Both the position numbers and the translations under genes were made by a program. A stretch of 64,000 nucleotides of DNA. It comes from an uncultured Actinomyces sp. Lineage in GTDB: Bacteria; Actinomycetota; Actinomycetes; Actinomycetales; Actinomycetaceae. The stretch is from NCBI GenBank assembly GCA_900545825.1, contig URAS01000002.1, forward strand, positions 91,953 to 155,952. The letters are read 5' to 3'. The notes beneath the pieces are model-generated. The model saw nothing but the letters and a program-made list of their open reading frames with translations. It was not told the origin of the DNA and did not search any database. This document shows positions 12,959 to 63,013 of this stretch, piece after piece; positions within the stretch are counted from its first letter, which is position 1, and each line of letters starts with the position of its first letter.

Positions 12959-13008
12959 AAGTTTTTCTTCTTCCAGTCGTCGATCCGCTTGAAGAGCGGA
13001 CTACAGGG

Positions 13009-13389
13009 TTACTTAGCCTTCTTCTTACCGGCCACCGTGCGCTTGGGGCCCTTGCGGGTGCGCGCGTTGGTCTTCGTCCGCTGACCGCGCACCGGCAGGT
13101 GACGACGGTGACGCAGGCCCTGGTAGCAGCCGATCTCGATCTTGCGGCGGATGTCCGCCTGGATCTCGCGGCGCAAATCGCCCTCGACCTGGAAGTTCGA
13201 CTCGATGTATTCGCGGACCTTGACGAGGTCCTCTTCCGTGATGTCGCGGACGCGAACGTCGGGCGACACGCCGGTGGCCTCGAGGGTCTGCTGGGCGCGG
13301 GTACGACCCACACCGAAGATGTACGTCAGGGCGACCTCAAGACGCTTGTCGCGAGGCAGGTCGACGCCTGCAATACGTGCTGCTGGCAT
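13009..13389 (-). CDS. rpsM: 30S ribosomal protein S13
   Basis: Internal ATG (RBS GGAGAA) giving [26 protein letters not shown]. Confidence 0.9.
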
Positions 13390-36723: not shown

Positions 36724-36989
36724 CGTCGCTTCCTCTCTGCCTGGGGGCTGGGCAAATGTGACCCTGATGTTCAGTCAGGGTAGCAAAAGAGGAATACTCA
36801 CATAGCGGATACCGGAACGTGGTCCGGGGCACACGGCCGGACCGACGCCAGGGCCATGGCGAGAGCGACGGGCGGGTAAGGTCATCCTCGCAGGCCACGG
36901 GTAGGGACGCGGCGCGAAGCCGCCGGACAAACCGAGCACTCCCCACCGGACAGTGAGCGCTATCACATGGCGAGGGCGGGCTGGGGTGC

Positions 36990-38543: not shown

Positions 38544-38640
38544 GCGTCAACTCCATTCTGCCGATGGCACCACGCAACACTGCCAACTCATGACGCTGTC
38601 TTCCAGCATCGTACACGCGTCGCGCAGAAGTGCCCACAGG

Positions 38641-43331: not shown

Positions 43332-43400
43332 GAAACGCCCACCCCGTTCGCCATTTCTGCCCGATAACCGGGAATCGATAGCCGATGGGGTGAGCGTTCC
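43332..43400. repeat. Copy C of a ~70-80 bp repeat family bounded by the inverted repeats GAAACGC(Y)CACC ... GGTGAGCGTT(Y)C
   Basis: CGAAACGCCCACC...CATTTCTGCCCGATAACCGGGA...GGGGTGAGCGTTCC. Aligns with copies A and B. Confidence 0.5.
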
Positions 43401-43509
43401 GGGGGTCCGAAGACCCAACACAGGCCAGGGGCGCCAAGGGAATACCGAGATCTCTCGCTCCCTCGTTGGAGGGGATTGTCGCGCCCTCGCCTGCGGTCTG
43501 GGTGGCCTC

Positions 43510-45393
43510 CTAGGCCGGGTAGATCCCCTCGAAGAAGTCGGCGAGCCGCTCGGGTTCACTGAGCGGGACGATCGCCGCGACATACATGTCGGGGCGCACG
43601 GCGATGGCGACGCCGCCGCGGTCGATCTCGCGCTCGGCGAAGATGTCGACGTCCTCGGTAATCCCGAAGACTTTTTCGAGGTTGATGAGCCCCAGCGGCC
43701 CCGTGACCGGCTTAAACAGGTCGGGCACGTCGTTGGGGTCGATGTCGTGGTGATCCTGCTGATAGATGACCTTGACGTCAAAGAGGGCGTCGAGGTCGTC
43801 GCCCTCGCGGCGGGTCGTAAGGATCGGCGAGCGGTCGTTCGACGCCATCCACTCGGCCCACGCGCGCAGCACCGAATCCTTGGCCTCGGCGGGCGCCGAG
43901 TCGGCGAACGCGTAGATCCGCCAGCGCCCGTCGGCCTCGTGGAGATGGCCCAGCTGCTTGGGGTTCGCGTCGCAGCGGCGGCCGACCTCGGCCGACTTGA
44001 AGCGCTTGCCCAGCGGGAAACCCTTGGCGAGGTCGGTCGCCGAGTCGCCGAAGGTGAGGACCGAAGGGCGGTACTGCGTCATGAAGCCGGCCGGGAACTC
44101 CGCGGTCTGGACGTAGAAGTCCTCGATGCTCAAGCCGTCCTCTTCCTTGACCATCATCGACGACCAGCGCGAGTCAAAGTCGATGAGGTCCTGGGCGATC
44201 TGCTGCCGCTCGGCCGTGTAGGTTCCCAGCAGTGAGCCGGGCGCGCGGCCGGTGAGGACATGCCCGAGCTTCCAGCCCAGGTTAAAGGCGTCCTGCATCG
44301 ACACGTTCATCCCCTGCCCCGCCTTCGCCGAGTGCGTGTGGCACGCGTCGCCGGCGATAAAGACGTGCGGGTCGCGGGTGCCGGCCTCCTCGACCGGGAT
44401 CTCGTCGAACCGGTCGGTCACGCGGTGACCCACCTCGTAGACGGACCACCAGGCGACCTCGCGGACGTCGAGCGTGTAAGGCGAGAGGATCGCGTTGGCG
44501 CGGCGGATGATCTCCTCGATCGGGGTCTCGCGCACCTTGTGGTGGTCGGCCTGCGTCTGATCGCCGAGGTCGACGTAGATGCGGGCGAGGTAGCCGCCCT
44601 CGCGGGGAATGTGGAGGATCGAGCCGTGCGTCGACTGGATGATCGCCTTGTTACGAATGTCCGGGAAGTCGGTGTTCGACAGGACGTCCATGACGCCCCA
44701 CGCATGCATCTGTGCCTTGCCCAGGTGGCGGGCACCGATCGCCCGACGCACCCGCGAATGCGCACCATCCCCGCCGAACAGGTACTTCGTCCGCACGGTG
44801 AACTGCTCACCATCGTGGTCGCCACCCACGTGCGCCACCGTCGCCAGCACCGGATACTCGGCGCCCTCGTCAAACTCGAGGTCGACGAACTCGTAGCCGT
44901 AATACGGCTTCAAGCGGGCCGGCGAGTAGCGTTCGGCGCGCTCGCGGAAGTAGTCGAGGATGCGCGCCTGGTTGATGATGAGGTGGGGGAACTCCGAGAT
45001 CCCCATGGGGTCGTCGGGCGTGCGCGTCGTGCGGACGATGTGGTCGGGGTTGTCCGGATCCGGCTTCCAGAAGGACGTCTCGGTGATCCGGTAGGCCTCG
45101 GCTTTGACTTCCTCGGCGAAGCCGAACGCCTGGAACGTCTCGACGCTGCGCTGCTGGACGCCGTCGGCGTGGCCGAGGACCAGACGGCCCTCGCGCTTTT
45201 CAATCATGGCCGTCCGCACCGTCGGGAAGTCCGCCAGCTGCGAGAACATGAGCATTCCCGCGGGGCCGGACCCCACAATGAGGACGTCGAGTTCGGTGGG
45301 CAGGGTGTCGGGGCGTTCCTCGAGGCCGACTCCGGCGGCGGGCTTGACCCGCGGATCCGTCGACACATACCCGTAGTGGTGAAATTGCTGCAT
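43510..45393 (-). CDS. FAD-dependent aromatic ring hydroxylase of the phenol 2-monooxygenase family with a C-terminal thioredoxin-like domain; candidate hydroxyphenylacetate hydroxylase
   Basis: 627 aa with VLIVGSGPAGM (GxGxxG), GDACHTHSAKAGQGMN (the DG/GD motifs of group A flavin monooxygenases) and a ~170-aa C-terminal extension. Confidence 0.7.
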   Translation of the reverse strand: MQQFHHYGYVSTDPRVKPAAGVGLEERPDTLPTELDVLIVGSGPAGMLMFSQLADFPTVRTAMIEKREGRLVLGHADGVQQRSVETFQAFGFAEEVKAEAYRITETSFWKPDPDNPDHIVRTTRTPDDPMGISEFPHLIINQARILDYFRERAERYSPARLKPYYGYEFVDLEFDEGAEYPVLATVAHVGGDHDGEQFTVRTKYLFGGDGAHSRVRRAIGARHLGKAQMHAWGVMDVLSNTDFPDIRNKAIIQSTHGSILHIPREGGYLARIYVDLGDQTQADHHKVRETPIEEIIRRANAILSPYTLDVREVAWWSVYEVGHRVTDRFDEIPVEEAGTRDPHVFIAGDACHTHSAKAGQGMNVSMQDAFNLGWKLGHVLTGRAPGSLLGTYTAERQQIAQDLIDFDSRWSSMMVKEEDGLSIEDFYVQTAEFPAGFMTQYRPSVLTFGDSATDLAKGFPLGKRFKSAEVGRRCDANPKQLGHLHEADGRWRIYAFADSAPAEAKDSVLRAWAEWMASNDRSPILTTRREGDDLDALFDVKVIYQQDHHDIDPNDVPDLFKPVTGPLGLINLEKVFGITEDVDIFAEREIDRGGVAIAVRPDMYVAAIVPLSEPERLADFFEGIYPA

Positions 45394-45561
45394 GGTCGCT
45401 CCTCACAACCTTGTGGGGTGATCTACCAGCACGATCATATATGCTTCCAGATAGGATGCCAAGAGTTTGGGCGACTTTTCCGCAGCCCCTCCCCCGAGAC
45501 GGCGGATCGTGTATGATTTCGGATAGGATTATGTATCCCGTAGCAGACCCAAGGAGGCGTT

Positions 45562-46347
45562 ATGCTCACCGACTCGCAGATCACCCGTATCGCCGATGAC
45601 CTCCTCGAGGCCCATCGCACCCGCACCCCGATCCCCCTGCTCACCAAGCGTTTCGACGGCATGGAGGTCGCCGACTCGTACGCCGTCCAGCGGCTGTGGG
45701 CCCAGCGGACCCGCGACGCCGGGCGCACGCTCGTCGGCCGCAAGATCGGCCTGACGTCGAAGGCCATGCAGGACGCCACGGGCATCACCGAGCCCGACTA
45801 CGGGGTCATTTTCGACGACATGGTCTTCGAGTCGGGCTGCGAGGTCGACTGGGGCCGCTACACCCACCCCCGCATCGAGGTCGAGCTGGCGTTCGTCCTC
45901 GGGAAGGACGTCACCGGGCCCGCGGCGACGGTGTTCGACGTCCTCGACGCGACCGAATGGGTGACGCCGGCGCTCGAGATCCTCGACTCGCGCATCGAGA
46001 TGGAGGGCCGGACGATCGTCGACACGATCGCCGACAACGCGGCGATGGGCGCGATGGTCGTCGGCGGCCGCCCGATGCGGGTCGACCAGCTGGATCTGCG
46101 CTGGGTCGGCGCGATGCTCTACCGCAACCAGACGATCGAGGAGACGGGCGTGGCCGGCGGCGTCCTCGGGCATCCGGCGAACGGCGTCGCGTGGCTGGCG
46201 AACAAGATCGCGCCGCACGGCGACCACCTGCACGCCGGCGAGATCATCCTCGCCGGGTCGTTCACGCGGCCGATGTGGGTCTACGAGGGCGACTCGGTGG
46301 TCGCCGACTACGGGCGAATGGGGACGGTGACATGCCAGTTCAACTGA
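45562..46347 (+). CDS. hpaH: 2-oxo-hept-4-ene-1,7-dioate / 2-keto-4-pentenoate hydratase (MhpD/HpaH family)
   Basis: 261 aa (RBS AAGGAGG) with [14 protein letters not shown] and [12 protein letters not shown] motifs. Confidence 0.8.
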
Positions 46348-47123
46348 GCACTTCTCGCACGCTGATCGCCCACCTGGCCGAGGCGGGGCGCCCGCTGGCC
46401 GGCATGTGGGTGTGTTCGGCCTCGCCGATCGCCGCGGAGATTTGCGCGGGATCCGGCCTCGACTACGTGCTGATCGACGCCGAGCATTCGCCGAATGACC
46501 TCTCGACACTGTTGCCGCAGCTGCACGCGTGCGCGGCGTACCCGGCGACGACGATCGTCAGGGTGCCGTACAACGACGAACGCCTCATCAAGCAGTTCCT
46601 GGACCTCGGTGTCGTTAACCTGTTGGTCCCTATGGTGCACACGGCCGAGCAGGCGCGCGCCGCCGTCGCGCGCGTCACCTATCCGCCGGAGGGCGTGCGC
46701 GGTGTCGGGTCGGCGCTGGCGCGGGCGTCGCGGTGGAATCGCGTGCCGAATTACCTGGCGAGGGCGCGCGAGACGATTTCGCTGATCCTCCAGATCGAGT
46801 CGGGCCAGGCCTGCGAGAACGTCGACGAGATCGCGGCGGTCGAGGGCGTCGACGCCCTCTTCGTGGGGCCGGCGGATTTGGCGGGCGACCTCGGGCTGCT
46901 GGGTCAGGCCGAGGACGAGGCCGTCGTCGAGCGGGTGCTCGCCTGCATCGAGGCGGGCCACCGCGCGGGCAAGCCGGTGGGGACGAACGCGTTTAACCCG
47001 GAGATGGCCAGGCGGTATTTCGAGGCTGGGGCGGACTTCGTCCTCGTGGGGGCGGACGTCACGCTGCTGGCGAGGGCCAGCGAGAAGTTGGCGGACGACT
47101 ACCTGCCGACGCTCGGCGGCTAG
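46332..47123 (+). CDS. hpaI: HpcH/HpaI-family aldolase (4-hydroxy-2-oxoheptanedioate aldolase)
   Basis: 263 aa. The ATG at 46332 overlaps the hydratase gene end by 16 nt. Contains LIDAEHSPND and LQIESGQA. Confidence 0.8.
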   Translation: MPVQLSTSRTLIAHLAEAGRPLAGMWVCSASPIAAEICAGSGLDYVLIDAEHSPNDLSTLLPQLHACAAYPATTIVRVPYNDERLIKQFLDLGVVNLLVPMVHTAEQARAAVARVTYPPEGVRGVGSALARASRWNRVPNYLARARETISLILQIESGQACENVDEIAAVEGVDALFVGPADLAGDLGLLGQAEDEAVVERVLACIEAGHRAGKPVGTNAFNPEMARRYFEAGADFVLVGADVTLLARASEKLADDYLPTLGG

Positions 47124-47139
47124 AGCCGCCCTCTTACGC

Positions 47140-47219
47140 GAAGCGCTCACCTAACGTGTTAAAACTGCCGGATACCGGACAGGATCGACATTTTAGGTGA
47201 GCGTTTCGGTTTTTTCGCG
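47140..47219. repeat. Copy A of the GAAACGCTCACC / GGTGAGCGTTTC repeat family. Here it ends in GGTTTTTT, so it also looks like the intrinsic terminator of the hydratase-aldolase operon
   Basis: GAAGCGCTCACC-TAACGTGTTAAAACTGCCGGATACCGGACAGGATCGACATTTTA-GGTGAGCGTTTC-GGTTTTTTCGCG. Its reverse complement is ~85% identical to copy B. Confidence 0.55.
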
Positions 47220-47223
47220 GAGG

Positions 47224-48657
47224 CTACCGCGGGAGGCCGACGTAGATCGTCTCTTCGAACTCGTCGATGCCCTCGAGGCCACCCTCGCGGCCCAGGCCCG
47301 ACGCTTTGACGCCGCCGAAGGGCGCCGCGGCGTTCGAGATGGTCCCGGAGTTGACGCCGAGCATCCCGACCTCGAGGCGGCGGGCCAGCCGCATGATCCG
47401 GCCGATATCGCGGGTGTGGACGTAGCCGGCGAGGCCGAACTCGGTGTCGTTGGCGTAGCGGACGACCTCGTCCTCGTCGTCGAAGCCGCAGATGGCGGCG
47501 ACGGGGCCGAAGACCTCCTCGCGCATGAGCGGGTTGTCGGGCGCGACGTCGCCGATCACGGTCGGCGGGTAGAAGTAGCCGGCGCCCTCGGGGACCTGGC
47601 CGCCGCAGCGCAGGATGCCGCCCGCGGCGACCGACCGGTCGACGAGGTCGGCGACATGGTCGCGCTGCTTCGCCGAGATAATCGGGCCGACGTCGACGCC
47701 CTCGGCCATCCCGTCGCCGACGGTCATCGCGGCGAACGCGTCGGCCAGGCGCGACGTGAACTCGGCCTGCAGCGACCGGTGGACGTAGAAGCGCGAGGAC
47801 GCGTTGCAGGCCTCGCCCATGTTGCGCATCTTCGTCGCGATCGCGGCGTCGACGGCGAGGGCGAGGTCGGCGTCCTCGAAGACGATAAACGGCGCCAGGC
47901 CGCCCAATTCCATCGAGGTGCGGAGGACGTTTTCGGCGGCCTCGCGCAGCAGGGCCCGCCCGACGCCGGTCGAGCCGGTGAACGAGATCTTCCGCAGCCG
48001 GGGATCGGCGATCATCGGGCCGGTCATCGGCGGCGTGTCCGCGGTCGGGACGACGTTGACGACGCCGGCGGGCAGGCCGATCTGGTCGAACACCTCGGCG
48101 AGCAGGAGCGACGTCAGCGGGGTCGCGTCGGAGGGCTTGAGGACGCACGTGCAGCCGGCCGCGAGCGCCGGCGCGATCTTGCGGGTGGCCATGGCGAGGG
48201 GGAAGTTCCACGGCGTGATGAAGAGGCACGGCCCGACGGGGCGCTTGAGGGTGAGGACGTGGACGCCGCCCTCGGGGGTGGGGTAGCTGGCGCCGTGGGC
48301 GTGGGGCGCGGATTCGGCGAACCAGCGCAAGAATTCGGCGCCGTAGGTGACCTCGGCGTATGCCTGGTCGAGGGGCTTGCCCATCTCGAGGGTCATGCAG
48401 CGGGCGAAGTCGTCGGCGCGGGCGGTGACGGCGTCGAAGGCGCGGGCGAGGTAGTCGGCGCGGACGCGCACGGGGGTCTCGGCCCAGGATTCGGCGGCGC
48501 GGTGGGCGGCGTCGAGGGCGGCCATGCCGTCGGCGGGCGACGCCGAGGCGACCTCGGCGAGGACGTCCTCGGTGGCGGGGTTGACGACGGGGAAGGTCTG
48601 GCCGGTCGCGGACGGCCGCCAGGTGCCGTCGATAAAGAGCGAGGTCGGATAGGACAT
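47224..48657 (-). CDS. NAD(P)+-dependent succinate-semialdehyde dehydrogenase (GabD-like), paralog 1
   Basis: 477 aa from an internal ATG (MSYPTSLFIDGTWRP). Contains MELGGLAP (Glu) and MGEACNASSRF (Cys). The 71-codon upstream extension was rejected. Confidence 0.8.
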   Translation of the reverse strand: MSYPTSLFIDGTWRPSATGQTFPVVNPATEDVLAEVASASPADGMAALDAAHRAAESWAETPVRVRADYLARAFDAVTARADDFARCMTLEMGKPLDQAYAEVTYGAEFLRWFAESAPHAHGASYPTPEGGVHVLTLKRPVGPCLFITPWNFPLAMATRKIAPALAAGCTCVLKPSDATPLTSLLLAEVFDQIGLPAGVVNVVPTADTPPMTGPMIADPRLRKISFTGSTGVGRALLREAAENVLRTSMELGGLAPFIVFEDADLALAVDAAIATKMRNMGEACNASSRFYVHRSLQAEFTSRLADAFAAMTVGDGMAEGVDVGPIISAKQRDHVADLVDRSVAAGGILRCGGQVPEGAGYFYPPTVIGDVAPDNPLMREEVFGPVAAICGFDDEDEVVRYANDTEFGLAGYVHTRDIGRIMRLARRLEVGMLGVNSGTISNAAAPFGGVKASGLGREGGLEGIDEFEETIYVGLPR

Positions 48658-48715
48658 GCGGGGGATCCTTTCGGGCCTGAAGGCTGGGGGGGTCGGCGAC
48701 GGTGCCGAACCTCCC

Positions 48716-48900
48716 ACTAATCGTATATGATTTCCTCGATAACGCGCCAGCCCCCGCGAGCCAACCGCCCCGGCCAGGCCCTTCACGCATCCCGACCACA
48801 CGCAATCCGCCAGAGAGAACTTCGCCGTTCCTCTTGACGCCGCCTGGTCGACCCCGTAGGCTGGAGTCAATCATATACGATTGAATGTATGATTAATCCG
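48716..48900. promoter_or_regulatory. Divergent promoter region carrying the operator-like 12-bp palindromes ATCGTATATGAT (48720-48731) and ATCATATACGAT (48870-48881), plus the half-site GAATGTATGATT
   Basis: AT-rich palindromes in a 70% GC background. The same motif occurs at 45506-45517 and 54102-54113. Confidence 0.5.
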
Positions 48901-48933
48901 AGAGAGACGACGTCGACTCCCACGGGAAGGACT

Positions 48934-50415
48934 GACATGGATCCTGTAACCGCCACCATTGGCCATCGCCCCGGCAAGATTTTCGCCGTTCACCTCTCGT
49001 ACGCCTCGCGCGCCGCGCAGCGCGGCCGCACGCCGGCCAACCCGTCGTACTTCTTTAAGGCGCCCTCGTCGCTGACCGGCTCGGGCACCGTCGCCCGTCC
49101 CGAAGGCTGCGAGCTCGTGGGCTTCGAGGGCGAGGTCGCCGTCGTCATCGGCACGCCCGGGCGCAACATCAGCGTCGAGGACGCGTGGAGCCACGTCGGC
49201 TGGGTGACCGCGGCGAACGACCTCGGCCTCCACGACATGCGGTACGCCGACCGCGGCTCGAACGTCCGCTCGAAGTCGGGCGACGGCTACTCCCCCGTCG
49301 GCCCCACGCTGCTGGATGCGCGTAAACTCGACGAAAAGCGCATCGGCGTCAAGACGTGGCTGGACGGCGCCCTCGTGTCGGACGACAACACGGGCGGGAT
49401 GCTGTTCACGATCTCGACGATGATCGCCGACCTCTCGCGCCTCCTCACCCTGGAGGAGGGCGACATGATCATGACCGGCGTCCCCGCCGGCGCATCGGTC
49501 GCCGAGCCGGGCCAGACGATCGAGGTCGAGGTCTTCAGCCTCGACGATCCCAGCCTGACGACGGGCCGCCTGCGCACCGAGGTCGTCTCCGCTCCCCCGC
49601 TGGCCAAGGTCGGCCACGCCCCGAAGGTCGATGACGCCCAGCGTTCGGACGCGTGGGGCTACCCGATCGGCACGGTCAAGGCCGAGGCCGACCGTCGCGC
49701 CCCGCTGGACCCCGAGGTCCGCCGCCGCCTCGAGAACGTCGGCGTCGGCACCCTGTCGGTGCAGCTGCGCAAGCGCGGCTACAACGAGGCGATCATCGAC
49801 GGCGTCAAGCCGCTCACCCCGGGCACACGCCTTATTGGTCCGGCCCGCACACTGCGCTACGTGCCGTTCCGCAAGGACCTGTTTGCCCAGCTCGGTGGCG
49901 GATTCAACCACCAGAAGCAGGTCGTCGACTCGCTGCGCGAAGGCGACGTCCTCGTCATGGATGCGCGCGGCTGCACCGAGGCCGGCACGCTGGGCGACAT
50001 CCTCGCCCTACGCGCGAAGACGCTGGGAGCGGCGGGCATCGTCACCGACGGCGCGGCCCGCGACTCGGCGGAGGTCGAGCGCGTCGGCCTGCCGGTGTTC
50101 ACGAACGGCCGCCACCCGGCCGTCCTCGGGCGCCGGCACGTGCCGTACGAGCACGACGTGACGATCGCCTGCGGCGGCGCCACGGTATGCGTCGGCGACA
50201 TCATCGTCGGCGACGACGACGGCGCCATCGTCATCCCCCGCGACCTGCTCAACGAGGTCCTCGCCGACGCCGAAGCCCAAGAACACCGCGAGCGCTTTAT
50301 CGCCGAACAGGTCGCGGCCGGCGAGAGCCTCGACGGGCTGTTCCCCGTGGCAAGCGACCACTGGAAGGAACGCTTCGCCGAGTGGGAGAAGGACCACCCC
50401 GCCCCGACTGCGTAA
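48934..50415 (+). CDS. Fusion protein: an N-terminal fumarylacetoacetate-hydrolase (FAH/HpaG-like) domain plus a C-terminal RraA-like (HMG/CHA aldolase / oxaloacetate decarboxylase family) domain
   Basis: 493 aa (RBS GGAAGGA). N-terminal domain: GFEGEVAVVIG...MIMTGVPAG. C-terminal domain: VLVMDARGCTEAGTLGDILALRAKTLGAAGIVTDGAARD. Confidence 0.65.
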   Translation, partial: DMDPVTATIGHRPGKIFAVHLSYASRAAQRGRTPANPSYFFKAPSSLTGSGTVARPEGCELVGFEGEVAVVIGTPGRNISVEDAWSHVGWVTAANDLGLHDMRYADRGSNVRSKSGDGYSPVGPTLLDARKLDEKRIGVKTWLDGALVSDDNTGGMLFTISTMIADLSRLLTLEEGDMIMTGVPAGASVAEPGQTIEVEVFSLDDPSLTTGRLRTEVVSAPPLAKVGHAPKVDDAQRSDAWGYPIGTVKAEADRRAPLDPEVRRRLENVGVGTLSVQLRKRGYNEAIIDGVKPLTPGTRLIGPARTLRYVPFRKDLFAQLGGGFNHQKQVVDSLREGDVLVMDARGCTEAGTLGDILALRAKTLGAAGIVTDGAARDSAEVERVGLPVFTNGRHPAVLGRRHVPYEHDVTIACGGATVCVGDIIVGDDDGAIVIPRDLLNEVLADAEAQEHRERFIAEQVAAGESLDGLFPVASDHWKERFAEWEKDHPAPTA

Positions 50416-50499
50416 CCCCGCAGGCGTCACTCCGCCCGACATCCCGGCGCCCAGCGCCCCGACACTTGTTGATTGTTCCGACTGACTGAAGGAGACCCC

Positions 50500-52032
50500 A
50501 TGACCGACGCAACCGGGTTGTTGCCGGATCACATCCAGCACTACATTGGCGGCCAATTCGTCGATTCGGCCGACGGCGACATGTTCGACGTCCTCGATCC
50601 GACGACGAACGAGGCCTACATCCAGTGCGCCTCCGGGAAGGCCGCCGACGTCGATGCCGCCGTTGCCGCCGCCCGCAAGGCGTTCGACGAGGGCCCGTGG
50701 CCCACGATGCAGCCGCGCGAGCGCGCCCGCATCCTCTACCGGATCGCCGACGAGGTCGAGAAGGTCCACTCCGAGCTGGCGGCGCTGGAGAGCCGCGACT
50801 CGGGTCTGCCGATCCGCCAGGCGAAGGGCCAGGCGAACCGCGCGGCCGAGAATTTCCGGTTCTTCGCCGACCTCATCGTTGCCCAGCGCGACGACACGTA
50901 CAAGATGCCGGGCCGCCAGATTAACTACGTCAACCGCAAGCCGAAGGGCGTCGCGGGCCTCATCACGCCGTGGAACACGCCGTTCATGCAGGAGTCGTGG
51001 AAGCTCGCGCCGGCCCTGGCGTCGGGCTGCACCCTGGTCCTCAAGCCCGCCGAGTTTACGCCCGCGTCGGCGTCGCTGTGGGCGGGCATCATGGAGCGCG
51101 CCGGCGTCCCCGAGGGCGTCTTTAACCTCGTCAACGGCTTCGGCGAGACGGCGGGCGACGCCCTCGTCAAGCACGAGGACGTCAACCTCATCTCGTTCAC
51201 CGGCGAGGCCGGCACGGGCCGCGTGATCTTCGCGAACTGCGCGCCGACGATGAAGGCGATGTCGATGGAGCTGGGCGGCAAGTCCCCGGCCGTCATCTTC
51301 GCCGACGCCGACTTCGAGGCCGCCCTCGACTCGACGTTGTTCGGCGTGTTTTCGCTCAACGGCGAACGCTGCACGGCGTCCTCGCGCATCCTCGTCGAGC
51401 GCCCGATTTACGACCGCTTCGTCGAGGCGTACGCCGAGCGCGCGAAGAAGATCAAGGTCGGCGTCCCGTCGGATCCCGACACCGAGATCGGCGCCCTCGT
51501 CCACCCCGAGCACTACGACAAGGTGACGAGCTACGTCGAGATCGGCAAGAAAGAGGCGCGCCTGGTCGCCGGCGGTGAGCGGCCCGCGGGCTTCGAGAAG
51601 GGCAACTACCTCGAGGCGACGGTGTTCGCCGACGTCGACCGCGACGCGCGGATCTTCCAGGAGGAAATCTTCGGCCCCGTCGTCTGCATCACCCCGTTCG
51701 ACACCGACGAGGAGGCCCTCGAGCTCGCCAACTGCGTCGAGTACGGCCTCGCCGCCTACGTGTGGACGAAGGACGTCACCCGCGCCCACCTGTTCGCGCA
51801 CGGGATCGAGGCCGGCATGGTGTGGGTGAACTCCCACAACGTCCGCGACCTGCGCACCCCGTTCGGTGGGGTCAAGGCCTCCGGCCTCGGCCACGAGGGC
51901 GGCTACCGCTCCCTCGACTTCTATTCCGACCAGCAAGCTATCCACATTCGCCTGGGCGACGTGCACACCACTCGCTTTGGCGCCACCGGTTACGCCGATA
52001 ACGACCTCGGCCTGGGCGGACCTTCCGCGTAA
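50500..52032 (+). CDS. hpaE: 5-carboxymethyl-2-hydroxymuconate semialdehyde dehydrogenase (HpaE / XylG family ALDH)
   Basis: 510 aa (RBS GAAGGAGA) with MELGGKSPAVIF, LNGERCTASSR (Cys) and EEIFGPV. Confidence 0.82.
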   Translation: MTDATGLLPDHIQHYIGGQFVDSADGDMFDVLDPTTNEAYIQCASGKAADVDAAVAAARKAFDEGPWPTMQPRERARILYRIADEVEKVHSELAALESRDSGLPIRQAKGQANRAAENFRFFADLIVAQRDDTYKMPGRQINYVNRKPKGVAGLITPWNTPFMQESWKLAPALASGCTLVLKPAEFTPASASLWAGIMERAGVPEGVFNLVNGFGETAGDALVKHEDVNLISFTGEAGTGRVIFANCAPTMKAMSMELGGKSPAVIFADADFEAALDSTLFGVFSLNGERCTASSRILVERPIYDRFVEAYAERAKKIKVGVPSDPDTEIGALVHPEHYDKVTSYVEIGKKEARLVAGGERPAGFEKGNYLEATVFADVDRDARIFQEEIFGPVVCITPFDTDEEALELANCVEYGLAAYVWTKDVTRAHLFAHGIEAGMVWVNSHNVRDLRTPFGGVKASGLGHEGGYRSLDFYSDQQAIHIRLGDVHTTRFGATGYADNDLGLGGPSA

Positions 52033-52121
52033 CCCCTCCGCGCGGCGTGGGCGGCCCGTCCACGCCGCGGCCTACACAGGCAATGCCCGATTACCGATGT
52101 CACAGCCAAAGGAGACTGATC

Positions 52122-53201
52122 ATGCACGAAATCGATCCCATCGCCACCCCGACCGCGCCTGCCCCGGACATCCTCCGATGCGCCTACATGGAAGTCATCG
52201 TGTCGGACCTTGCACGGTCGCGTGAGTTCTACGTCGACACGCTCGGCCTCGTCGTCACCAAGGAGACCGAGGACGCCCTCTACCTGCGGACCTTCGACGA
52301 GTTCATCCACCACAACCTCGTCCTCCGCGTTGGCCCGACGCCGGCGGTCGCCGCGTTTGCGTTCCGCGTCCGCAGCCCCGAAGAGGTCGACAAGGCCGAG
52401 GCCTACTACAAGGAGCTGGGCTGCCGCACCGAACGGCGCAAGGACGGCTTCGTCGACGGCATCGGCGACGCCGTGCGCGTCGAGGACCCGCTGGGCTTCC
52501 CCTACGAGTTCTTCTTCGAGTGCGAGCACGTGCCGCGCATGTGCTGGGACTACGACAAGCAGTCGGCCGGCGCCCTCGTCCGCCTCGACCACTTCAACCA
52601 GGTGTTCCCCGACGTCGTCAACGGCTCGAAGTACCTGGAAGACCTGGGCTTCAAGCGGACCGAGGACATCAAGGACGACAAGGACGTCACCTACGCCGCG
52701 TGGTTCGCGCGCAAGCACACCGTCCACGACACGGCGCTGACCGGCGGCGACGGCCCGAGGATGCACCACATCGCGTTCGCGACGCACGAGAAGCACAACA
52801 TCCTCTACATTTGCGACAAGCTGGGCGCCCTGCGCCAGTCCGACGCGATCGAGCGCGGCCCGGGGCGTCACGGCGTCTCGAACGCGTTCTACCTGTACCT
52901 GCGCGACCCCGACGGGCACCGCGTCGAAATCTACACGCAGGACTACTACACGGGTGACCCCGACAACCCGACGATCACGTGGGACGTCCACGACAACCAG
53001 CGGCGTGACTGGTGGGGCCACCAGGTCGTCCCGTCGTGGTACCGCGACGCCTCGCTGGTCCTCGACCTCGACGGCAATCCGCAGCCGCTCATCGCCCGCC
53101 AGGAACCGAAGGAGCTGGACGTGACGATCGGCGCCGACGGCTTCTCGTACACCCGCAAGGGCGACGAGGAGAAGGGCTACAAGGTCGGGTCGCAGCTGTA
53201 G
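52122..53201 (+). CDS. hpaD: Homoprotocatechuate (3,4-dihydroxyphenylacetate) 2,3-dioxygenase, a type I extradiol dioxygenase
   Basis: 359 aa (RBS AAAGGAGA). Two VOC modules with His/Glu metal ligands (HHIAF...; E in DPDGHRVEIY). Confidence 0.8.
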   Translation: MHEIDPIATPTAPAPDILRCAYMEVIVSDLARSREFYVDTLGLVVTKETEDALYLRTFDEFIHHNLVLRVGPTPAVAAFAFRVRSPEEVDKAEAYYKELGCRTERRKDGFVDGIGDAVRVEDPLGFPYEFFFECEHVPRMCWDYDKQSAGALVRLDHFNQVFPDVVNGSKYLEDLGFKRTEDIKDDKDVTYAAWFARKHTVHDTALTGGDGPRMHHIAFATHEKHNILYICDKLGALRQSDAIERGPGRHGVSNAFYLYLRDPDGHRVEIYTQDYYTGDPDNPTITWDVHDNQRRDWWGHQVVPSWYRDASLVLDLDGNPQPLIARQEPKELDVTIGADGFSYTRKGDEEKGYKVGSQL

Positions 53202-53303
53202 ACCAGCCCACGTTGTGGCACCCGGGCGGCGGCGGCCGGTCCCCATCCCGTTATGCTGGGACCGGCGCCGCTACCGGGCGGCGTCGCGATCAAGGAGGCT
53301 GAG

Positions 53304-53960
53304 ATGGCCGAGGGCATGTCCAAGTCGGAACGCGTCTACATGAAGCTGCGCGAGGGGATCCTCCAGGGCAAATACACGCCCGGCTACCGTTTCGTCCTCG
53401 ACCGGATCGCCCGCGAGGAGGGCGTGTCGCCCGTACCCGTACGCGAGGCCGTGCGACTCCTCGAGGCCGAAGGGCTCGTCACGTTCCAACGCAACGTCGG
53501 CGCCGTCGTCTCGGCGATCGACAAGCACGTCTACGCCGAAACGATGGAGACCGTCGCCGTCCTCGAGGGCTATGCCACCGCGCTGGCCGCGGCACACATC
53601 ACCGAGGACGACCTCGCCGAAGCCCAGAACGTCAACGACCGGATGCGGCATCGGCTGACCTCGGCGTTTGACCCGCGCGAGGTGACGCTCCTCAACAAGC
53701 AGTTCCACCGGATCATTACCTCGGCGTGTCCCAACCAGCGCATGCTCGACATCCTCGAGCGTGAATGGGACCGCATCACCTTTATTCGACGCAGCCAGTT
53801 TGCGTTCGACCCCGTCCACTCGATCCGTTCCGTCGACGAGCACGACGCCATCATCCAGGCGATGCGCGAGCGCGACGCCGACCAGATCGAGCAGCTGGCC
53901 CGGCAGCACAAAATGCGGACGCTGCGCCAGTACCTGGCCACCGACCACTCCCAGGCGTAA
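53304..53960 (+). CDS. GntR-family transcriptional regulator (FadR/FCD subfamily), the likely regulator of the cluster
   Basis: 218 aa (RBS AAGGAGG). N-terminal winged helix-turn-helix (RIAREEGVSPVPVREAVRLLE) plus an FCD domain. Confidence 0.8.
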   Translation: MAEGMSKSERVYMKLREGILQGKYTPGYRFVLDRIAREEGVSPVPVREAVRLLEAEGLVTFQRNVGAVVSAIDKHVYAETMETVAVLEGYATALAAAHITEDDLAEAQNVNDRMRHRLTSAFDPREVTLLNKQFHRIITSACPNQRMLDILEREWDRITFIRRSQFAFDPVHSIRSVDEHDAIIQAMRERDADQIEQLARQHKMRTLRQYLATDHSQA

Positions 53961-54072
53961 CCGCCGGCGTCACCCCCTGCGTCACCCCGGCAGGCGGGCG
54001 GTCGGTCGCGGCGATGCCCTGCGCGGCGCTGTTGTCGCGCGCGAGGGCGCCGCGGTTTTTCCTCGTTATCTC

Positions 54073-54150
54073 TTGACACCGTGGCGTACGTCACGGTTAT
54101 AATCGTATACGATCGCGTTTATGGTCGCATATGTGACTCACGTTCACCGC
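54073..54150 (+). promoter_or_regulatory. Near-consensus promoter of the MFS gene (TTGACA at 54073-54078, 19 nt, TATAAT at 54098-54103) overlapped by three operator-like palindromes
   Basis: CCGTGGCGTACGTCACGG sits between the -35 and -10 boxes. ATCGTATACGAT (54102-54113) overlaps the -10. CTCACGTTCAC (54138-54148) matches the GTCACGTTCAC motif of the 60-63 kb inverted repeats. Confidence 0.5.
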
Positions 54151-54161
54151 TGATAGGAGCC

Positions 54162-55604
54162 ACCATGACCCACCAGTCGACCCCCTCCCCCGCCAGCTCC
54201 CAGCTGGTCCTTAACCCCCACAACCGTGAAGACCGCAGAGTCGCGGTCGCCACCCTCGTCGGCACGACCGTCGAGTGGTACGACTTCTTCATCTACTCCA
54301 ACGCCGTCGCCCTCGTGTTCGGTCCCCTGTTCTTCGAGCCGCTGGCCAAGGAAAACACCGTGCTGGCCCAGCTCATCGGGTTCGCGACCGTGGGCATCAG
54401 CTTCTTCTTCCGCCCGCTGGGCGCCATGGTCGCCGGCCACCTGGGCGACAAGATCGGCCGCAAGGCGATGATGGTGGCGACGCTGCTGCTCATGGGTGGC
54501 GCGACCGTCCTCGTCGGCTGCCTGCCGACGTACGCGTCGATCGGGATGGCCGCGCCGTTCCTCCTCATCGCCCTCCGTATCCTCCAGGGCTTCGCGGCCG
54601 GCGGCGAGTGGGGCGGCGCCGCCCTCATGGCGGTCGAGCACGCGCCGGCGAAGCGCCGCGGCTGGTTCGGCGGGTTCCCGCAGGTCGGCGTGCCTCTGGG
54701 CATGCTGACGGCGACGGCGGTCCTCGCGATCGTCCACGTCATCTCGCGCGACCAGTTCACGACGTGGGGCTGGCGGATCCCGTTCCTCCTGTCGGTCGTC
54801 CTCATCATCGTCGGCATGCTCATCCGCCTCAAGGTGTCGGAATCGCCGATCTTCGAGGAGGTCCGCAACGAGGAAGACCAGCTGCGCCTGCCGATCGTCC
54901 AGCTGTTCCGGTTCAACGGCAAGCAGGTCGTCCTCGGCGCCCTCGCGTTCATGGGCAACGGCGTCGCCGGATACATGGTGACCGGCGGCTACATCCTCGC
55001 CTACACGTCCGGGCCCGGCGGCCTGGGGGTCAGCGCCGAGCACATGCTCACGCTCATCACGATCGCGTCGGCGCTGTGGGTCTGCTCGACCCTGTTCGCC
55101 GCGTGGATTTCCGACCGGATCGGGCGCGTGCGGACGTTCCAGATCGGCTTCGTCCTCCAGCTGCTGTGGGTGTTCCCCCTGTTCATGTTCGTTGACCGCG
55201 GCCAGATCGGCCTCATCGCCCTCGGCATGCTGCCGCTGACGCTGGGCCTGGGCCTGACCTACGGCCCGCAGTCGGCGATGTTCGCCGAGATGTTCCCGGC
55301 CCGCGTCCGCTACTCCGGCGCCGGCATGGCGTACGCGATCGGCGCGATCCTCGGTGGCGCGTTCGCGCCGATGATCGCCACGTGGCTGAGGGCGACGTTC
55401 CACACGTCGATGGCGGTGTCGACCTACCTGTTCATCTTCACGGCGATCGGCATGGTCGGCGTGTCCCTGATCAAGGACCGGACGGGCAAGCCGCTGGGCC
55501 GCGACGCGAACGACATCCCCGGCAACGCCGAGCTCGAGGCGGCCGTCACGGCGCACTCGGTCTCCGGTACGAAGGCGACGTTCGAGCGCGGCGCCGGCTG
55601 GTAA
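54162..55604 (+). CDS. MFS transporter of the metabolite:H+ symporter family; probable aromatic acid permease
   Basis: 480 aa with 12 TM segments, the signature GHLGDKIGRK and GGEWGGAALMAVEHAP. Confidence 0.8.
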   Translation, partial: TMTHQSTPSPASSQLVLNPHNREDRRVAVATLVGTTVEWYDFFIYSNAVALVFGPLFFEPLAKENTVLAQLIGFATVGISFFFRPLGAMVAGHLGDKIGRKAMMVATLLLMGGATVLVGCLPTYASIGMAAPFLLIALRILQGFAAGGEWGGAALMAVEHAPAKRRGWFGGFPQVGVPLGMLTATAVLAIVHVISRDQFTTWGWRIPFLLSVVLIIVGMLIRLKVSESPIFEEVRNEEDQLRLPIVQLFRFNGKQVVLGALAFMGNGVAGYMVTGGYILAYTSGPGGLGVSAEHMLTLITIASALWVCSTLFAAWISDRIGRVRTFQIGFVLQLLWVFPLFMFVDRGQIGLIALGMLPLTLGLGLTYGPQSAMFAEMFPARVRYSGAGMAYAIGAILGGAFAPMIATWLRATFHTSMAVSTYLFIFTAIGMVGVSLIKDRTGKPLGRDANDIPGNAELEAAVTAHSVSGTKATFERGAGW

Positions 55605-55645
55605 ACGGCTGGTTGCCGGTGCTGGCGAGACCCCCGTACTGACCC

Positions 55646-55715
55646 GGCGCGGATGGGGAGGACGGCGTCGCAGGCTTCGAAGTCTGCCTGCCGAGACGAC
55701 CTCCCCATTCGCGCC
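55646..55715. repeat. Copy D1 of a second repeat: a 16-bp imperfect inverted repeat GGCGCGGATGGGGAGG ... CCTCCCCATTCGCGCC closing a ~38-nt variable loop
   Basis: The outer arms are identical to D2 at 57598-57665 and the interior differs. Confidence 0.5.
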
Positions 55716-55735
55716 GCAAGGCACCCTCCACCCCC

Positions 55736-55846
55736 GAAACGCTCACCCAAAACCGGAAACGCTCACCTCAATTGTCATTTCTGTCCGCTATCCGGCAGAT
55801 CTAACACGTTAGGTGAGCGTTTCGCTCGGACGGTGAGCGTTTCGCC
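55736..55846. repeat. Copy B of the GAAACGCTCACC / GGTGAGCGTTTC family, with both terminal repeats duplicated in tandem
   Basis: GAAACGCTCACC x2 ... TGTCCGCTATCCGGCAGATCTAACACGTTA-GGTGAGCGTTTC x2. Lies in the convergent MFS/fhs spacer. Confidence 0.55.
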
Positions 55847-55855
55847 GCGAGGGCG

Positions 55856-57526
55856 CTACGAGAGGCCGATGACCTCGCCGTTGACCAAGTCCATGTCGAG
55901 GGCGCGCGGGTGCTTGGGCAGGCCCGGCATCGTGAGGATCTTGCCGGTCAGGCAGACGATGAAGCCGGCACCGAGGCTGGGGCGCAGCTCGCGGACGGTG
56001 ATCGTGAAGCCCTCGGGGGCGCCCATGACCTTGGGGTCGTCGGTGAACGACGCCGGCGTCTTGGCCACGCACACGGGCAGGCGGTCGTAGCCCAGCTCCT
56101 CCAGACGGGCCAGCTGCGCCTGCGCCTCGTCGGTGAGGACGACACCGTCGGCGCCGTAGCAGCGGCGGGCGACGGCGTTGAGCTTGTCGAGCAGCGAGTC
56201 CTCGTCGGCGTAGCAGCGATTCGGCACCACCGGGTCGCCCTCGGTGGCGGCGGCGATGACGGCGTCGGCAAGAGCGGCCCCACCCTCGCTGCCCTTGGCG
56301 AAAACCTCGCAGGGCGCGGCCGTCACGCCGGCCTCGCGGCAGAAGTCGCTGATCACAGCCAGTTCGGCGTCGGTGTCGGTGGCGAAGCGGTTGACCGCGA
56401 CGACGCAGCGCATCCCGAACGCCTGGAGGCTTTCCAGGTGCCGCGCGAGGTTCGCGGCGCCGCGGCGGACGGCCTCGACGTCCTCGGTGCCGAGGTCGGC
56501 CTCGGCGACACCGCCGTGCATCTTGAGGGCGCGCACCGTCGCGACGACGACCGTGCACGAGGGACGCAGGCCACCGAAGGCCGAGACGATGTCGAGGAAC
56601 TTTTCGGCGCCCAGGTCGGCACCGAAGCCGGCCTCGGTGACGACGAAATCTGCGAGCTTCAGCGCCGTCTTGGTCGCGATCAGCGAGGACGCGCCGTGGG
56701 CGATGTTGGCGAAGGGGCCACCGTGGACGAACGCCGGGGTGTGCTCGAGGGTCTGGACGAGGTTCGGCTTGACCGCATCCTTGAGGATCATCGCGAGAGC
56801 GCCCTCAATACCGAGGTCGTGGACGGTCAGCGGCTGGCCCGAACGGGTGTAGCCGACGAGGACGCGGCCCAGGCGCGCCTTGAGGTCGTCGGCGTCGGAC
56901 GCCAGGCAGAGGATCGCCATGATTTCGCTGGCCACGGTGATGTCAAAGCCGTCCTCGCGGATGTCGCGGTCCTTGCGGACGCCGCGGCCGACGGTCAGCT
57001 GGCGCAGCGCGCGGTCGTTGACGTCGATGCAGCGGCGGACGGCGACGGTGTCGGGGTCGAGGTCCCACTCGTTACCCCAGTACAGCGTGTTGTCGATGCA
57101 CGCACACATGAGGTTGTTCGCCGCGGTGATCGCGTGCATGTCGCCGGTGAAGTGGAGGTTGATGTCGTCCATCGGGACAACCTGGGCGTAGCCGCCGCCG
57201 GCCGCGCCGCCCTTGCGGCCGAAGACCGGGCCCATCGAGGGCTCGCGCAGGCACGCGACCGCGCGCTTACCGGCCGCGGCGAGCGAGTCGGCGAGGCCGA
57301 CCGTCACCGTCGACTTGCCTTCGCCGGCGCTGGTCGGCGAAATGGCCGTGACCAGGACCAATCGGCCGTCCTCCTGGTCGGCGACGCGACCCATGAGGGC
57401 GGTGGAGACCTTGGCTTTCGTCGTGCCGTAGAGTTCGAGGTCGCCCTCGTCGATCCCCAGCTTCTGCCCGATGGCGCGGATGTCGTCCAGTTCGGCCGCA
57501 CGCGCGATCTCAATGTCCGTGAGCAT
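55856..57526 (-). CDS. fhs: Formate--tetrahydrofolate ligase
   Basis: 556 aa. MLTDIEIARAAELDDIRAIGQKLGI...PTSAGEGKSTVTVGL (P-loop). Confidence 0.93.
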   Translation of the reverse strand: MLTDIEIARAAELDDIRAIGQKLGIDEGDLELYGTTKAKVSTALMGRVADQEDGRLVLVTAISPTSAGEGKSTVTVGLADSLAAAGKRAVACLREPSMGPVFGRKGGAAGGGYAQVVPMDDINLHFTGDMHAITAANNLMCACIDNTLYWGNEWDLDPDTVAVRRCIDVNDRALRQLTVGRGVRKDRDIREDGFDITVASEIMAILCLASDADDLKARLGRVLVGYTRSGQPLTVHDLGIEGALAMILKDAVKPNLVQTLEHTPAFVHGGPFANIAHGASSLIATKTALKLADFVVTEAGFGADLGAEKFLDIVSAFGGLRPSCTVVVATVRALKMHGGVAEADLGTEDVEAVRRGAANLARHLESLQAFGMRCVVAVNRFATDTDAELAVISDFCREAGVTAAPCEVFAKGSEGGAALADAVIAAATEGDPVVPNRCYADEDSLLDKLNAVARRCYGADGVVLTDEAQAQLARLEELGYDRLPVCVAKTPASFTDDPKVMGAPEGFTITVRELRPSLGAGFIVCLTGKILTMPGLPKHPRALDMDLVNGEVIGLS

Positions 57527-60257: not shown

Positions 60258-60336
60258 ACGTGATCCTTTCGTCCGTTTTCATCACGCCCATGGGCCTCAA
60301 GCGGTGAACGTGACCTTTTTGATCACGTTCACCGCG
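60252..60336. repeat. IR-L: an ~85-bp low-GC block with two palindromes (CGTGATC...N16...ATCACG and GCGGTGAACGTGACC-TTTTT-GATCACGTTCACCGC) in the promoter of hydratase-2. It is the inverted copy of 62930-63013
   Basis: The reverse complement of 62977-63013 is CCGTGAACGTGACCCTTTCGTCCGCTTTCATCACGTT versus 60252-60288 CCGTGAACGTGATCCTTTCGTCCGTTTTCATCACGCC. Confidence 0.6.
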
Positions 60337-62812: not shown

Positions 62813-62929
62813 GGTTTCGCTCCTTCGCGATCGGTCGGCCCCCGCACACGCGCCAGGGCCGGCGGAATTGTCCGTTTTTCTCAGCCTAACGCCGGGGCCC
62901 AACTTCGGCACCCGCAGGCGCTACCCCCA

Positions 62930-63013
62930 CAGTGAACGTGACGTGAAAAGGTCACGTTCACGGATTGACGCGCGTTAACGTGATGAAAGCGGACGAAAGG
63001 GTCACGTTCACGG
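62930..63013. repeat. IR-R: the inverted copy of IR-L (GTGAACGTGAC-GTGAAAAG-GTCACGTTCAC and CGTGAT...GTCACGTTCACGG). It sits in the promoter of SSADH-2 and overlaps the glycerate kinase stop codon
   Basis: See IR-L. Confidence 0.6.

Follow-up and report, generated by a model that had tools for sequence, protein, structure and literature searches.

The stretch of DNA analysed here, 64 kb from an uncultured Actinomycetaceae species and called 'the window' throughout, carries three copies of a short repeat bounded by an inverted 12-mer, GAAACGCTCACC / GGTGAGCGTTTC. At least 32 distinct copies were recognized in the same species, all of them intergenic. We propose that they form a lineage-specific, non-autonomous family of small hairpin-forming extragenic repeats, of the REP (repetitive extragenic palindrome), REPIN or BIME (bacterial interspersed mosaic element) type and with SPRITE-like positioning, a reading to which we give a probability of about 0.6. 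Sequence comparison shows that copies have been added at new chromosomal sites within this one species. The family is ordinary in kind and new in detail, its own features being phased arrays of the 12-mer and an asymmetric end variant. The window copies and their parts are listed below, in window positions and with the scores of a covariance model of the family.

43332 to 43400, no strand assigned: copy A, a diverged single-unit element, GAAACGCCCACC ... GGTGAGCGTTCC (59.7 and 49.1 bits on the two strands; E about 9e-18 at 59.7 bits)
47140 to 47207, no strand assigned: copy B, a single-unit element, GAAGCGCTCACC, then 44 nt, then GGTGAGCGTTTC (66 bits, both strands)
47208 to 47219, plus strand: GGTTTTTTCGCG tail behind copy B, a T-run unique among the three window copies
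55736 to 55843, no strand assigned: copy C, a composite with two 12-mers per arm (74 and 65 bits)
55736 to 55747 and 55832 to 55843, no strand assigned: outer 12-mers of copy C, flanking its core
55756 to 55823, no strand assigned: core of copy C, 68 nt, the nearest relative of copy B among the 32 members compared

The initial annotation had described three intergenic copies with terminal inverted repeats, and all three were found at the places it gave. Each is a quasi-palindrome of about 68 nt between the inverted 12-mers. At no more than one mismatch, GAAACGCTCACC matches the window nine times, compared with 0.46 matches expected from shuffled sequence (none of 100 shuffles reached nine), and eight of the nine matches are termini of copies A, B and C. 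The covariance model gave E-values of 1e-14 to 1e-23 for the three copies; a scan of all 64 kb with the filters off returned no convincing further one.

Copy A, which has one mismatch in each terminus and an interior 50 to 66% identical to those of other copies, folds at -37 to -41 kcal/mol; the 110-nt gap beside it folds as well, more weakly and more diffusely. The genes on either side are both on the minus strand, so that the copy is downstream of a FAD monooxygenase gene (stop at 43510) and upstream of a promoter-like site of rpsL (43287-43258). Copy B (-43 and -38 kcal/mol, z about -6 to -7) and copy C both lie between convergent genes, as had been claimed for two of the copies: a HpcH/HpaI aldolase gene (stop at 47123, plus strand) faces an aldehyde dehydrogenase gene (stop at 47224, minus strand) around copy B, and a major facilitator superfamily (MFS) transporter gene (stop at 55604, plus strand) faces the formate-tetrahydrofolate ligase (FTHFS) gene (stop at 55856, minus strand) around copy C. 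The 12-mers of copy C start at 55736 and 55756 on the plus strand and at 55812 and 55832 on the minus strand, exactly 20 nt start to start, and the whole copy folds at -60 (plus) and -74 (minus) kcal/mol with z about -7.5. The reported duplication of both termini is thereby borne out for the copy at 55.7 kb, where a second 12-mer stands 20 nt away on each side. Similarly, the opposite orientation and approximately 85% identity of two copies describe B and C well, positions 47138-47214 being 86% complementary to 55749-55825 over 77 nt. The common internal core that had been claimed holds only as a loose likeness: it reads loosely CCGGATACCGG / CATTTCTG, and the other copies have CCGCTATCCGG and CCCGATAACCGGG. 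Across strains, represented by independent assemblies of several samples and a metagenome-assembled genome (MAG) from NCBI, the three copies are the same except for the GGTTTTTT after copy B, which has six Ts in the window and the NCBI MAG and seven in the BECK22 metagenome strain.

Further copies were sought in three collections with a pattern that demanded both termini perfect and 35 to 65 nt apart. Among metagenome contigs, 28 loci matched, 26 of them from the ENA assemblies OKBA01 and OKKH01. Two contigs of these assemblies are 99.8 to 100% identical to MAG contigs, and in those MAG contigs the phosphoenolpyruvate carboxykinase (PEPCK) is recorded under the two NCBI accession series, MDU0968... 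and MDU0970..., that also contain the window's EF-Tu, IMPDH, monooxygenase and FTHFS; because of this contig identity and the matching NCBI series, the ENA contigs were assigned to the species of the window. Contiguous sequence was also fetched around the window and around MAG genes and searched with the family model. Outside the window it held one copy 11 kb to the left (13001-13061 of locus L034) and three copies in a 22-kb locus around PEPCK (L039); in the 3.5 kb beyond the window's right end there was none. The distinct copies of the species thus comprise the three of the window and at least 29 others. The density in contiguous sequence is 7 copies in about 99 kb, or approximately 1 per 14 kb, which for a genome of 2.5 to 3 Mb extrapolates, without being a count, to roughly 200 copies. 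Copies beyond the window had been named by the initial annotation as the check on its proposal. They are present, both as 26 metagenome loci with perfect termini and in the contiguous MAG sequence, and we conclude from these additional copies in the same species that the family is indeed a dispersed repeat.

That the repeat should be a chance similarity or an assembly artefact has almost no probability. Some pattern matches were of that nature: one (L006) folds back perfectly on itself where its contig ends, and two (L001 and L012) lie in coding sequence. L006 was rejected as a family member on this ground, as was L012, whose interior is also unrelated. The window copies, however, are identical in the independent assemblies and the NCBI MAG, the 12-mer is present nine times where 0.46 is expected, and 30 members align over their full length.

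Outside the species, a scan of 185,579 species-representative genomes gave no perfect copy but a single match in Alcanivorax, which was discarded because it lies inside a coding sequence and is due to chance. This negative result is uninformative about the window's genome, since the scan missed the window's own copies (the species is absent or masked there). A BLAST search of 72,556 plasmids returned no similar sequence, two scans of the IMG/VR viral contigs gave no match, and a literature search for both 12-mers led only to unrelated vertebrate PCR primers.

To place the copies in a phylogenetic context, use was made of about 90 kb of sequence from three sister lineages, namely Nanchangia anserum, the MAG GCA_030527545.1 and a Logan assembly, whose PEPCK proteins are 89 to 90% identical to that of the focal species. 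With the copy density of the focal species, this sequence should contain about six. No family member was found at E <= 10, nor any pair of 12-mers, so that conservation in related species, whose absence, along with that of further copies, the initial annotation had named as refuting its proposal, is not found in these 90 kb. Such absence is expected of a mobile repeat, and not of a conserved regulatory module. The PEPCK gene itself is instructive: all four lineages have a GC-rich hairpin downstream of it, and an array of elements (four plus two 12-mers), which begins a few bases past this native hairpin, is present in the focal species only. The orthologous site behind PEPCK is empty in the sister lineages. 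Empty-site tests by ortholog were confined to PEPCK, the one gene that gave usable sister loci; FTHFS had no close relatives for such a test (best matches Firmicutes, at most 67% identity), for MetE the best relatives reached 75% only, and the identical-protein matches of S12 and S7 came from the same species only.

The PEPCK locus also contains a larger difference between the lineages. Compared with N. anserum (L043, 11846-12000), the focal species (L039, 11840-16900) has an additional 4.8 kb between PEPCK and a GH42 galactosidase gene, made up of an AAA_16 ATPase gene whose 3' flank is low in GC, a XylA2-like gene and a MFS gene. One element of the family is found at each of the three junctions of this insertion, the three together bracketing first the AAA_16 gene and then the XylA2 and MFS genes. 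Two of these elements (L039a and L039b) match at 93% in direct orientation, their homologous spacers included, and one of them has an additional 20-nt unit. Another neighbouring pair, L025a and L025b, is 84% identical in direct orientation, and copies B and C of the window are 82 to 86% identical in inverted orientation. As neighbouring elements are mutually the closest among the 32, whole composites, arrays included, have been copied, and often locally.

Such copying could be that of a classical MITE (miniature inverted-repeat transposable element), that is, an internally deleted derivative of an insertion sequence (IS) of the DDE type, mobilised in a cut-and-paste or copy-paste manner by a full-length IS from another part of the genome, acting on terminal inverted repeats of 12 to 22 bp. 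The elements do have clear terminal inverted repeats (12-22 nt) and a non-coding core well below the size limit of about 400 bp, and they are small and numerous; two of them (L034 and L003) have unrelated interiors inside identical termini, and local duplication resembles local hopping. By definition, however, MITEs have target-site duplications at their flanks and a parent IS to which they are related (PMC3184786). Around the 32 elements, direct repeats at offsets of 0 to 11 nt and lengths of 2 to 8 nt did not exceed expectation, in a search where exact element ends could not be set by comparison with unoccupied sites of the species, and no parent IS was found. Neither an IS nor a transposase was found in about 170 kb of the species' sequence, nothing similar is present in the plasmids or IMG/VR contigs, and a variable number of phased subterminal 12-mers is atypical of bacterial MITEs. 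The MITE label, one of those offered by the initial annotation, therefore fails for want of a target-site duplication, although the inverted repeats and the small size had been seen correctly, and a MITE origin appears rather unlikely. With no target-site duplication and a palindromic form, the elements point to an enzyme of the RAYT kind (REP-associated tyrosine transposase), directed to single strands or hairpins, rather than to a classical DDE transposase, and insertion without target duplication is what REP elements show.

The alignment of 30 cores gives the layout of the element: GAAACGCTCACC - TnAnTTGTCR - variable centre - YGACAAnTnA - GGTGAGCGTTTC, or two inverted arms of about 32 nt each around a loop of 3 to 6 nt, which together make one long hairpin. 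At the centre is a short hairpin, in the main either CYGTCCG-nTAA-CCGGACAG or CGGCCC-TGAG-GGGCCG; L034 and L003 have unrelated interiors. Either arm may be extended outward by one to three more 12-mers with a strict period of 20 nt, up to four per arm, separated by 8-nt spacers with a loose consensus. Element lengths are 61 to 148 nt. About ten of the 32 elements have, at a single outermost unit, the end variant (G)AAGATTAAACGCTCRYC, here called the TTAA end. Three explanations of this end were tried, namely the stop codon of the upstream gene, a mini-ORF (ATG GTG AGC GTT TAA) and a promoter directed outward (TAATCT agrees with the -10 pattern TANNNT); all were rejected, as frame, distance and orientation relative to the flanking genes are inconsistent. 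The inner 12-mers are the most constant part: in the seven copies from contiguous sequence they have 4 mismatches in 168 nt (about 98% conserved), compared with a mean pairwise identity of 65% for the interiors. In the metagenome copies, the search pattern is partly responsible for the near-invariance of the 12-mers.

A second dispersed family was noticed in the same species. It consists of a hairpin, CCGTGAACGTGAYC - A/T-rich loop of 5 to 7 nt - GRTCACGTTCACGG, often with an extra direct 12-mer about 50 nt upstream or as two to three tandem hairpins, and its 12-mer, GGTGAACGTGAC, matches that of the first family at 9 of 12 positions. This family, too, is absent from the three sister lineages, and one intergenic region (L013) holds members of both. 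Its members are the following.

Window, 60251 to 60333 and 62946 to 63014
L013, 367 to 455
L039, 74 to 103, 7438 to 7517, 19129 to 19159 and 20907 to 21030

The regular arrays raise the question of whether the element is foremost a protein-binding site, the 12-mers, two helical turns apart, being bound at the DNA level by a dedicated protein or recombinase involved in the movement of gene blocks or in chromosome organisation. Strict 20-nt phasing with up to four sites per arm, the contrast between 12-mers (about 98%) and interiors (about 65%), the likeness at 9 of 12 positions between GGTGAACGTGAC and GGTGAGCGTTTC, and the 93% identical copies that bracket genes not found between PEPCK and GH42 in N. 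anserum would all fit. On the other hand, any abundant intergenic repeat will bracket gene blocks, the conservation of the 12-mer is partly due to ascertainment because perfect 12-mers were required in the metagenome scan, no candidate protein is known, and the REPs of Escherichia coli, once proposed as nucleoid organisers, did not act as such when tested. We regard binding of this sort as the primary role as very unlikely.

The location of the copies with respect to genes is strongly biased, nearly all of them being downstream of genes. Among 23 copies whose context could be classified, about 14 lie between convergent genes, 8 between genes in tandem and 1 (L039, 13521-13628) in the promoter region of divergent genes. 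In the species' contiguous sequence, only 10 of 74 junctions (13.5%) are convergent, so that the enrichment is significant (P about 2e-7, or 3e-4 with the background set at 25%). The first 12-mer is commonly 3 to 22 nt from a stop codon, and at loci such as L019, L010, L014 and L027 the element fills nearly the whole intergenic region. No transposase was found by a Pfam scan among the genes that flank copies or lie between paired copies, which are ordinary chromosomal genes and encode NAD-binding, AAA_16, LacI, HAD and similar domains.

At the RNA level, every core folds on both strands, with energies between -24 and -47 kcal/mol, and composites reach -60 and -74 kcal/mol (z about -7). The stem of the hairpin ends in ...GCGUUUC, and its tail consists only of the UUUC within or after the stem. 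A scan of 43-57 kb for canonical terminators (hairpin plus U-tract) on both strands found 0, compared with 4.9 in shuffled sequence; the genome thus seems to avoid U-tract terminators. The native terminator-like hairpins of the relatives have short CUUUC-type tails behind them, similar to the GUUUC of the element. A hairpin of this native kind is likely also present on the MFS side of copy C, if the predicted fold is a guide:

55645 to 55718, plus strand: unique GC-rich hairpin GCGCGGAUGGGGAGG...CCUCCCCAUUCGCGC, outside the repeat, between the MFS stop and copy C (fold z = -3.6), likely the native 3' hairpin of the MFS gene

Position and predicted folding make a terminator role plausible, and one may ask whether the elements are simply a bidirectional terminator or a module of the 3' untranslated region, selected by the host, for which mobility is incidental or long extinct. 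The enrichment between convergent genes, the very tight spacing to both stop codons, the elements that occupy nearly whole intergenic regions, the hairpins that end in GUUUC on both strands in a region where canonical terminators are missing, and the fixed copies, identical across strains, are all consistent with this. Function alone, however, leaves unexplained more than 30 dispersed copies that share a 12-mer and have no counterpart in the sister lineages. Stem mismatches are frequent and non-compensated, a native hairpin has been retained ahead of the element at PEPCK and at the MFS gene, one copy is found where divergent genes have their promoter region, and neither the phased outer 12-mers nor the TTAA end has a role in a terminator. 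This alternative we consider unlikely. The conserved bidirectional-terminator module suggested by the initial annotation hence keeps its possible terminator role and loses its conservation, which did not extend to the sisters. As for the U-tract ascribed to one copy, a T-run does follow the copy at 47 kb (T6 or T7), but the terminator scan calls none of the window copies. A search of Rfam for known terminator or REP RNAs, also recommended at that stage, gave no match in the window at gathering thresholds, and permissive scans of the elements produced only sub-threshold noise from miRNA precursors.

We then compared the family with known repeat systems. The REP and BIME elements of Enterobacteriaceae and the REPINs of Pseudomonas, the latter mobilised by RAYT transposases, are short, extragenic and hairpin-forming repeats of hundreds of copies (PMC3116915, PMC3337134 and PMC3184786). 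The present elements are likewise short extragenic hairpin repeats in many copies (at least 32 in the species, 7 per 99 kb), lineage-specific and vertically kept, without target-site duplication, single or in clustered arrays, and biased to gene 3' ends and convergent pairs; as in a REPIN, the whole forms one long hairpin. They differ in that the unit is a non-palindromic 12-mer in phased direct arrays, and not a palindromic REP of 20 to 40 nt with a GTAG-type head; there is no sequence similarity, and no RAYT, in REPIN systems a single-copy HUH Y1 transposase gene with the repeats at its flanks, was found among the Pfam-scanned genes beside copies. The cited account of RAYT illustrates REP-linked groups with Escherichia/Enterobacteriaceae and Pseudomonas and leaves Actinobacteria unmentioned (PMC5581495). 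REP and SPRITE elements are biased to convergent genes' 3' ends (PMC3184786). With SPRITEs the family shares this convergent bias (about 14 of 23, compared with 13.5%), a functional resemblance only and no homology: phylum and sequence differ, and the present family mostly lacks a U-tract and has phased 12-mer arrays. The Correia elements of Neisseria, which are of the MITE type, are similar in having terminal inverted repeats, a non-coding core, small size, many copies and stable RNA hairpins. Correia elements can act as terminators or processing sites. The mycobacterial interspersed repetitive units (MIRUs) are direct tandem repeats within operons, and not long palindromes. Like the present elements, MIRUs are actinobacterial, intergenic and 40 to 100 bp long, occur in tens of copies, are missing at the orthologous sites of relatives and vary in their number of tandem units (PMC3184786), but the two have no sequence similarity. 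An intrinsic terminator is a GC-rich stem-loop with a U-tract directly behind it; here the stem is strong, but no U-tract follows directly, copy B alone having its T6-7.

Two other identities were considered and rejected. The element is not an integron attC site (RYYYAAC ... GTTRRRY): its termini are GAAACGC...GCGTTTC, GTTTCGS does not fit GTTRRRY, and the flanks are convergent core-metabolism genes with no cassette array. A tRNA-like reading was discarded as well.

Several observations weigh against our assignment to the REP/REPIN/BIME type. The classical REP unit is palindromic, and a REPIN is a pair of such palindromes; the present element has the two inverted arms of about 32 nt, yet neither arm nor 12-mer is palindromic, and phased direct arrays are outside the described features of REPINs. 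The asymmetric TTAA end, found in about 10 of 32 copies, is not accounted for. No RAYT, IS200-like or other transposase stands beside a copy in the 170 kb or so of the species' sequence. No presence/absence polymorphism was seen among the available strains, and recent mobility is without support because the window copies are identical across strains apart from the T6/T7 difference. Stem covariation is weak, and the pair counts over 30 copies do not indicate selection for RNA pairing beyond that of a decaying DNA palindrome: 77.8% of stem cells are paired, compared with 76.9% in shuffles, 21 of the 30 copies have a mismatch at pair 16:54, and double changes are only modestly above shuffles and come mostly from the two types of centre. 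With respect to termination, none of the three window copies is called by the terminator scan, a T-run is present at one of three only (copy B, two bases beyond the stem), and a native hairpin lies between stop codon and element both at PEPCK and on the MFS side of the 55.7-kb copy, so that at these two sites the element is dispensable as a sole terminator.

Even so, dispersed copies, intergenic position and hairpin folding support the REP-type extragenic element that the initial annotation had put forward. Spread of such repeats would be non-autonomous, an enzyme acting in trans and reading the 12-mer or the hairpin, and copies would persist at the 3' ends of genes where insertion is tolerated or useful. 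Each transcribed strand would fold into a highly stable hairpin with ...GCGUUUC at the end of its stem, and the element would then act as a two-way 3'-end barrier, by partial termination, by protection from 3' exonucleases or by both; RNA 3' ends should in that case be found at or just after ...GGUGAGCGUUUC on both strands. The precedent is E. coli, in which REPs are partial terminators and mRNA stabilisers, a model REP being a partly Rho-dependent terminator plus stabiliser, and in which REPs between convergent genes are associated with higher expression of both genes (bioRxiv 10.64898/2026.03.23.713779). By this analogy, a two-way barrier function, as terminator or stabiliser, is probably a secondary property of the family.

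A more specific and doubtful scenario would be a REPIN-like partnership in Actinobacteria that relies on an enzyme other than the proteobacterial RAYTs. A dedicated protein would bind phased arrays of the 12-mer (GGTGAGCGTTTC, and GGTGAACGTGAC in the second family), two helical turns apart, and, without target duplication, place copies of entire composites in 3' intergenic sites close by, thereby bracketing acquired gene blocks and helping to shuffle them. Blocks shuffled in this way may include AAA_16 / XylA2-MFS, inserted between PEPCK and GH42, as well as the aromatic-catabolism block that the copies at 47 kb and 55 kb enclose.

The host is a little-known organism. The window has a G+C content of 67.6% and includes the rpsL-rpsG-fusA-tuf region and the S10 operon. 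Two NCBI MAG accession series, recorded for an uncultured 'Actinomycetaceae bacterium', contain proteins identical to those of the window, and identical proteins are also encoded on many 200-kb contigs from human metagenomes; the species is an uncultured Actinomycetaceae MAG from infant-gut metagenomes. The closest named relative found is N. anserum (PEPCK 90% identical). No EF-Tu relative at 90% identity or more exists in a collection of 15 billion proteins, which shows how thinly the lineage is sampled.

Some features of the neighbouring genes deserve to be recorded in their own right. Two aldehyde dehydrogenase paralogues (35170-38546, about 72% DNA identity) lie between tuf and the S10 (rpsJ) operon, an unusual break of the conserved str-S10 arrangement that is present in all strains seen. 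The one beside tuf (36990-38546, minus strand) is broken into two open reading frames by a stop at about 37920-37922. It is split in the same way (206 + 309 aa) in a 100% identical locus (L031) and intact (517 aa) in two other strains (L030 and L032), and the sequence indicates that it is likely a strain-specific pseudogene. Two further aldehyde dehydrogenase paralogues, at 47224-48870 and 61349-62920, are on the same strand, 14.1 kb apart, with about 78 to 80% DNA identity over at least 600 nt. Apart from self matches, the FTHFS gene (55856-57526, minus strand) has its best homologues among 5.8 billion proteins in Firmicutes, at no more than 67% identity, which suggests either that the gene was acquired horizontally or that the lineage is very isolated. 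About 4 to 5 kb left of the window start, on the same contig (L034, 15748-16543), three small genes in tandem, each preceded by a low-GC spacer of about 250 nt, encode related peptides of 35 to 38 aa, e.g. MDNINLDVVSQLLTVAKQVVDLVFGLIKDMGKYEG, which from their sequence look amphipathic and either secreted or bacteriocin-like. In this genome of 68% G+C, confident open reading frames end with 23 TAG, 25 TGA and 15 TAA codons, so that TAG is unusually common. Stops adjoining elements (in the window, L034 and the flanks of elements in L002-L029) are TAG or TAA in 32 of 37 cases. An enrichment of TAG or depletion of TGA beside elements (TGA 5 of 37, compared with 25 of 63) was not retained, the signal being weak and confounded by the genome-wide frequency of TAG.

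The papers cited here on REPIN/RAYT systems and small repeats describe such families mainly from Proteobacteria and Firmicutes. If our reading is true, the genome 'punctuation' provided by REP, REPIN and SPRITE elements extends to an uncultured lineage of Actinomycetaceae, with the 12-mer as a clear candidate recognition site and the family as a compact case for spread without a recognisable RAYT. At a practical level, the repeats probably break short-read assemblies of the species, as many contigs of 1 to 7 kb carry one, and the number of 20-nt units could serve as a strain marker. Should transcripts from both directions be terminated or stabilised at the elements, these would offer two-way 3' modules ready for use in high-GC hosts without canonical U-tract terminators.

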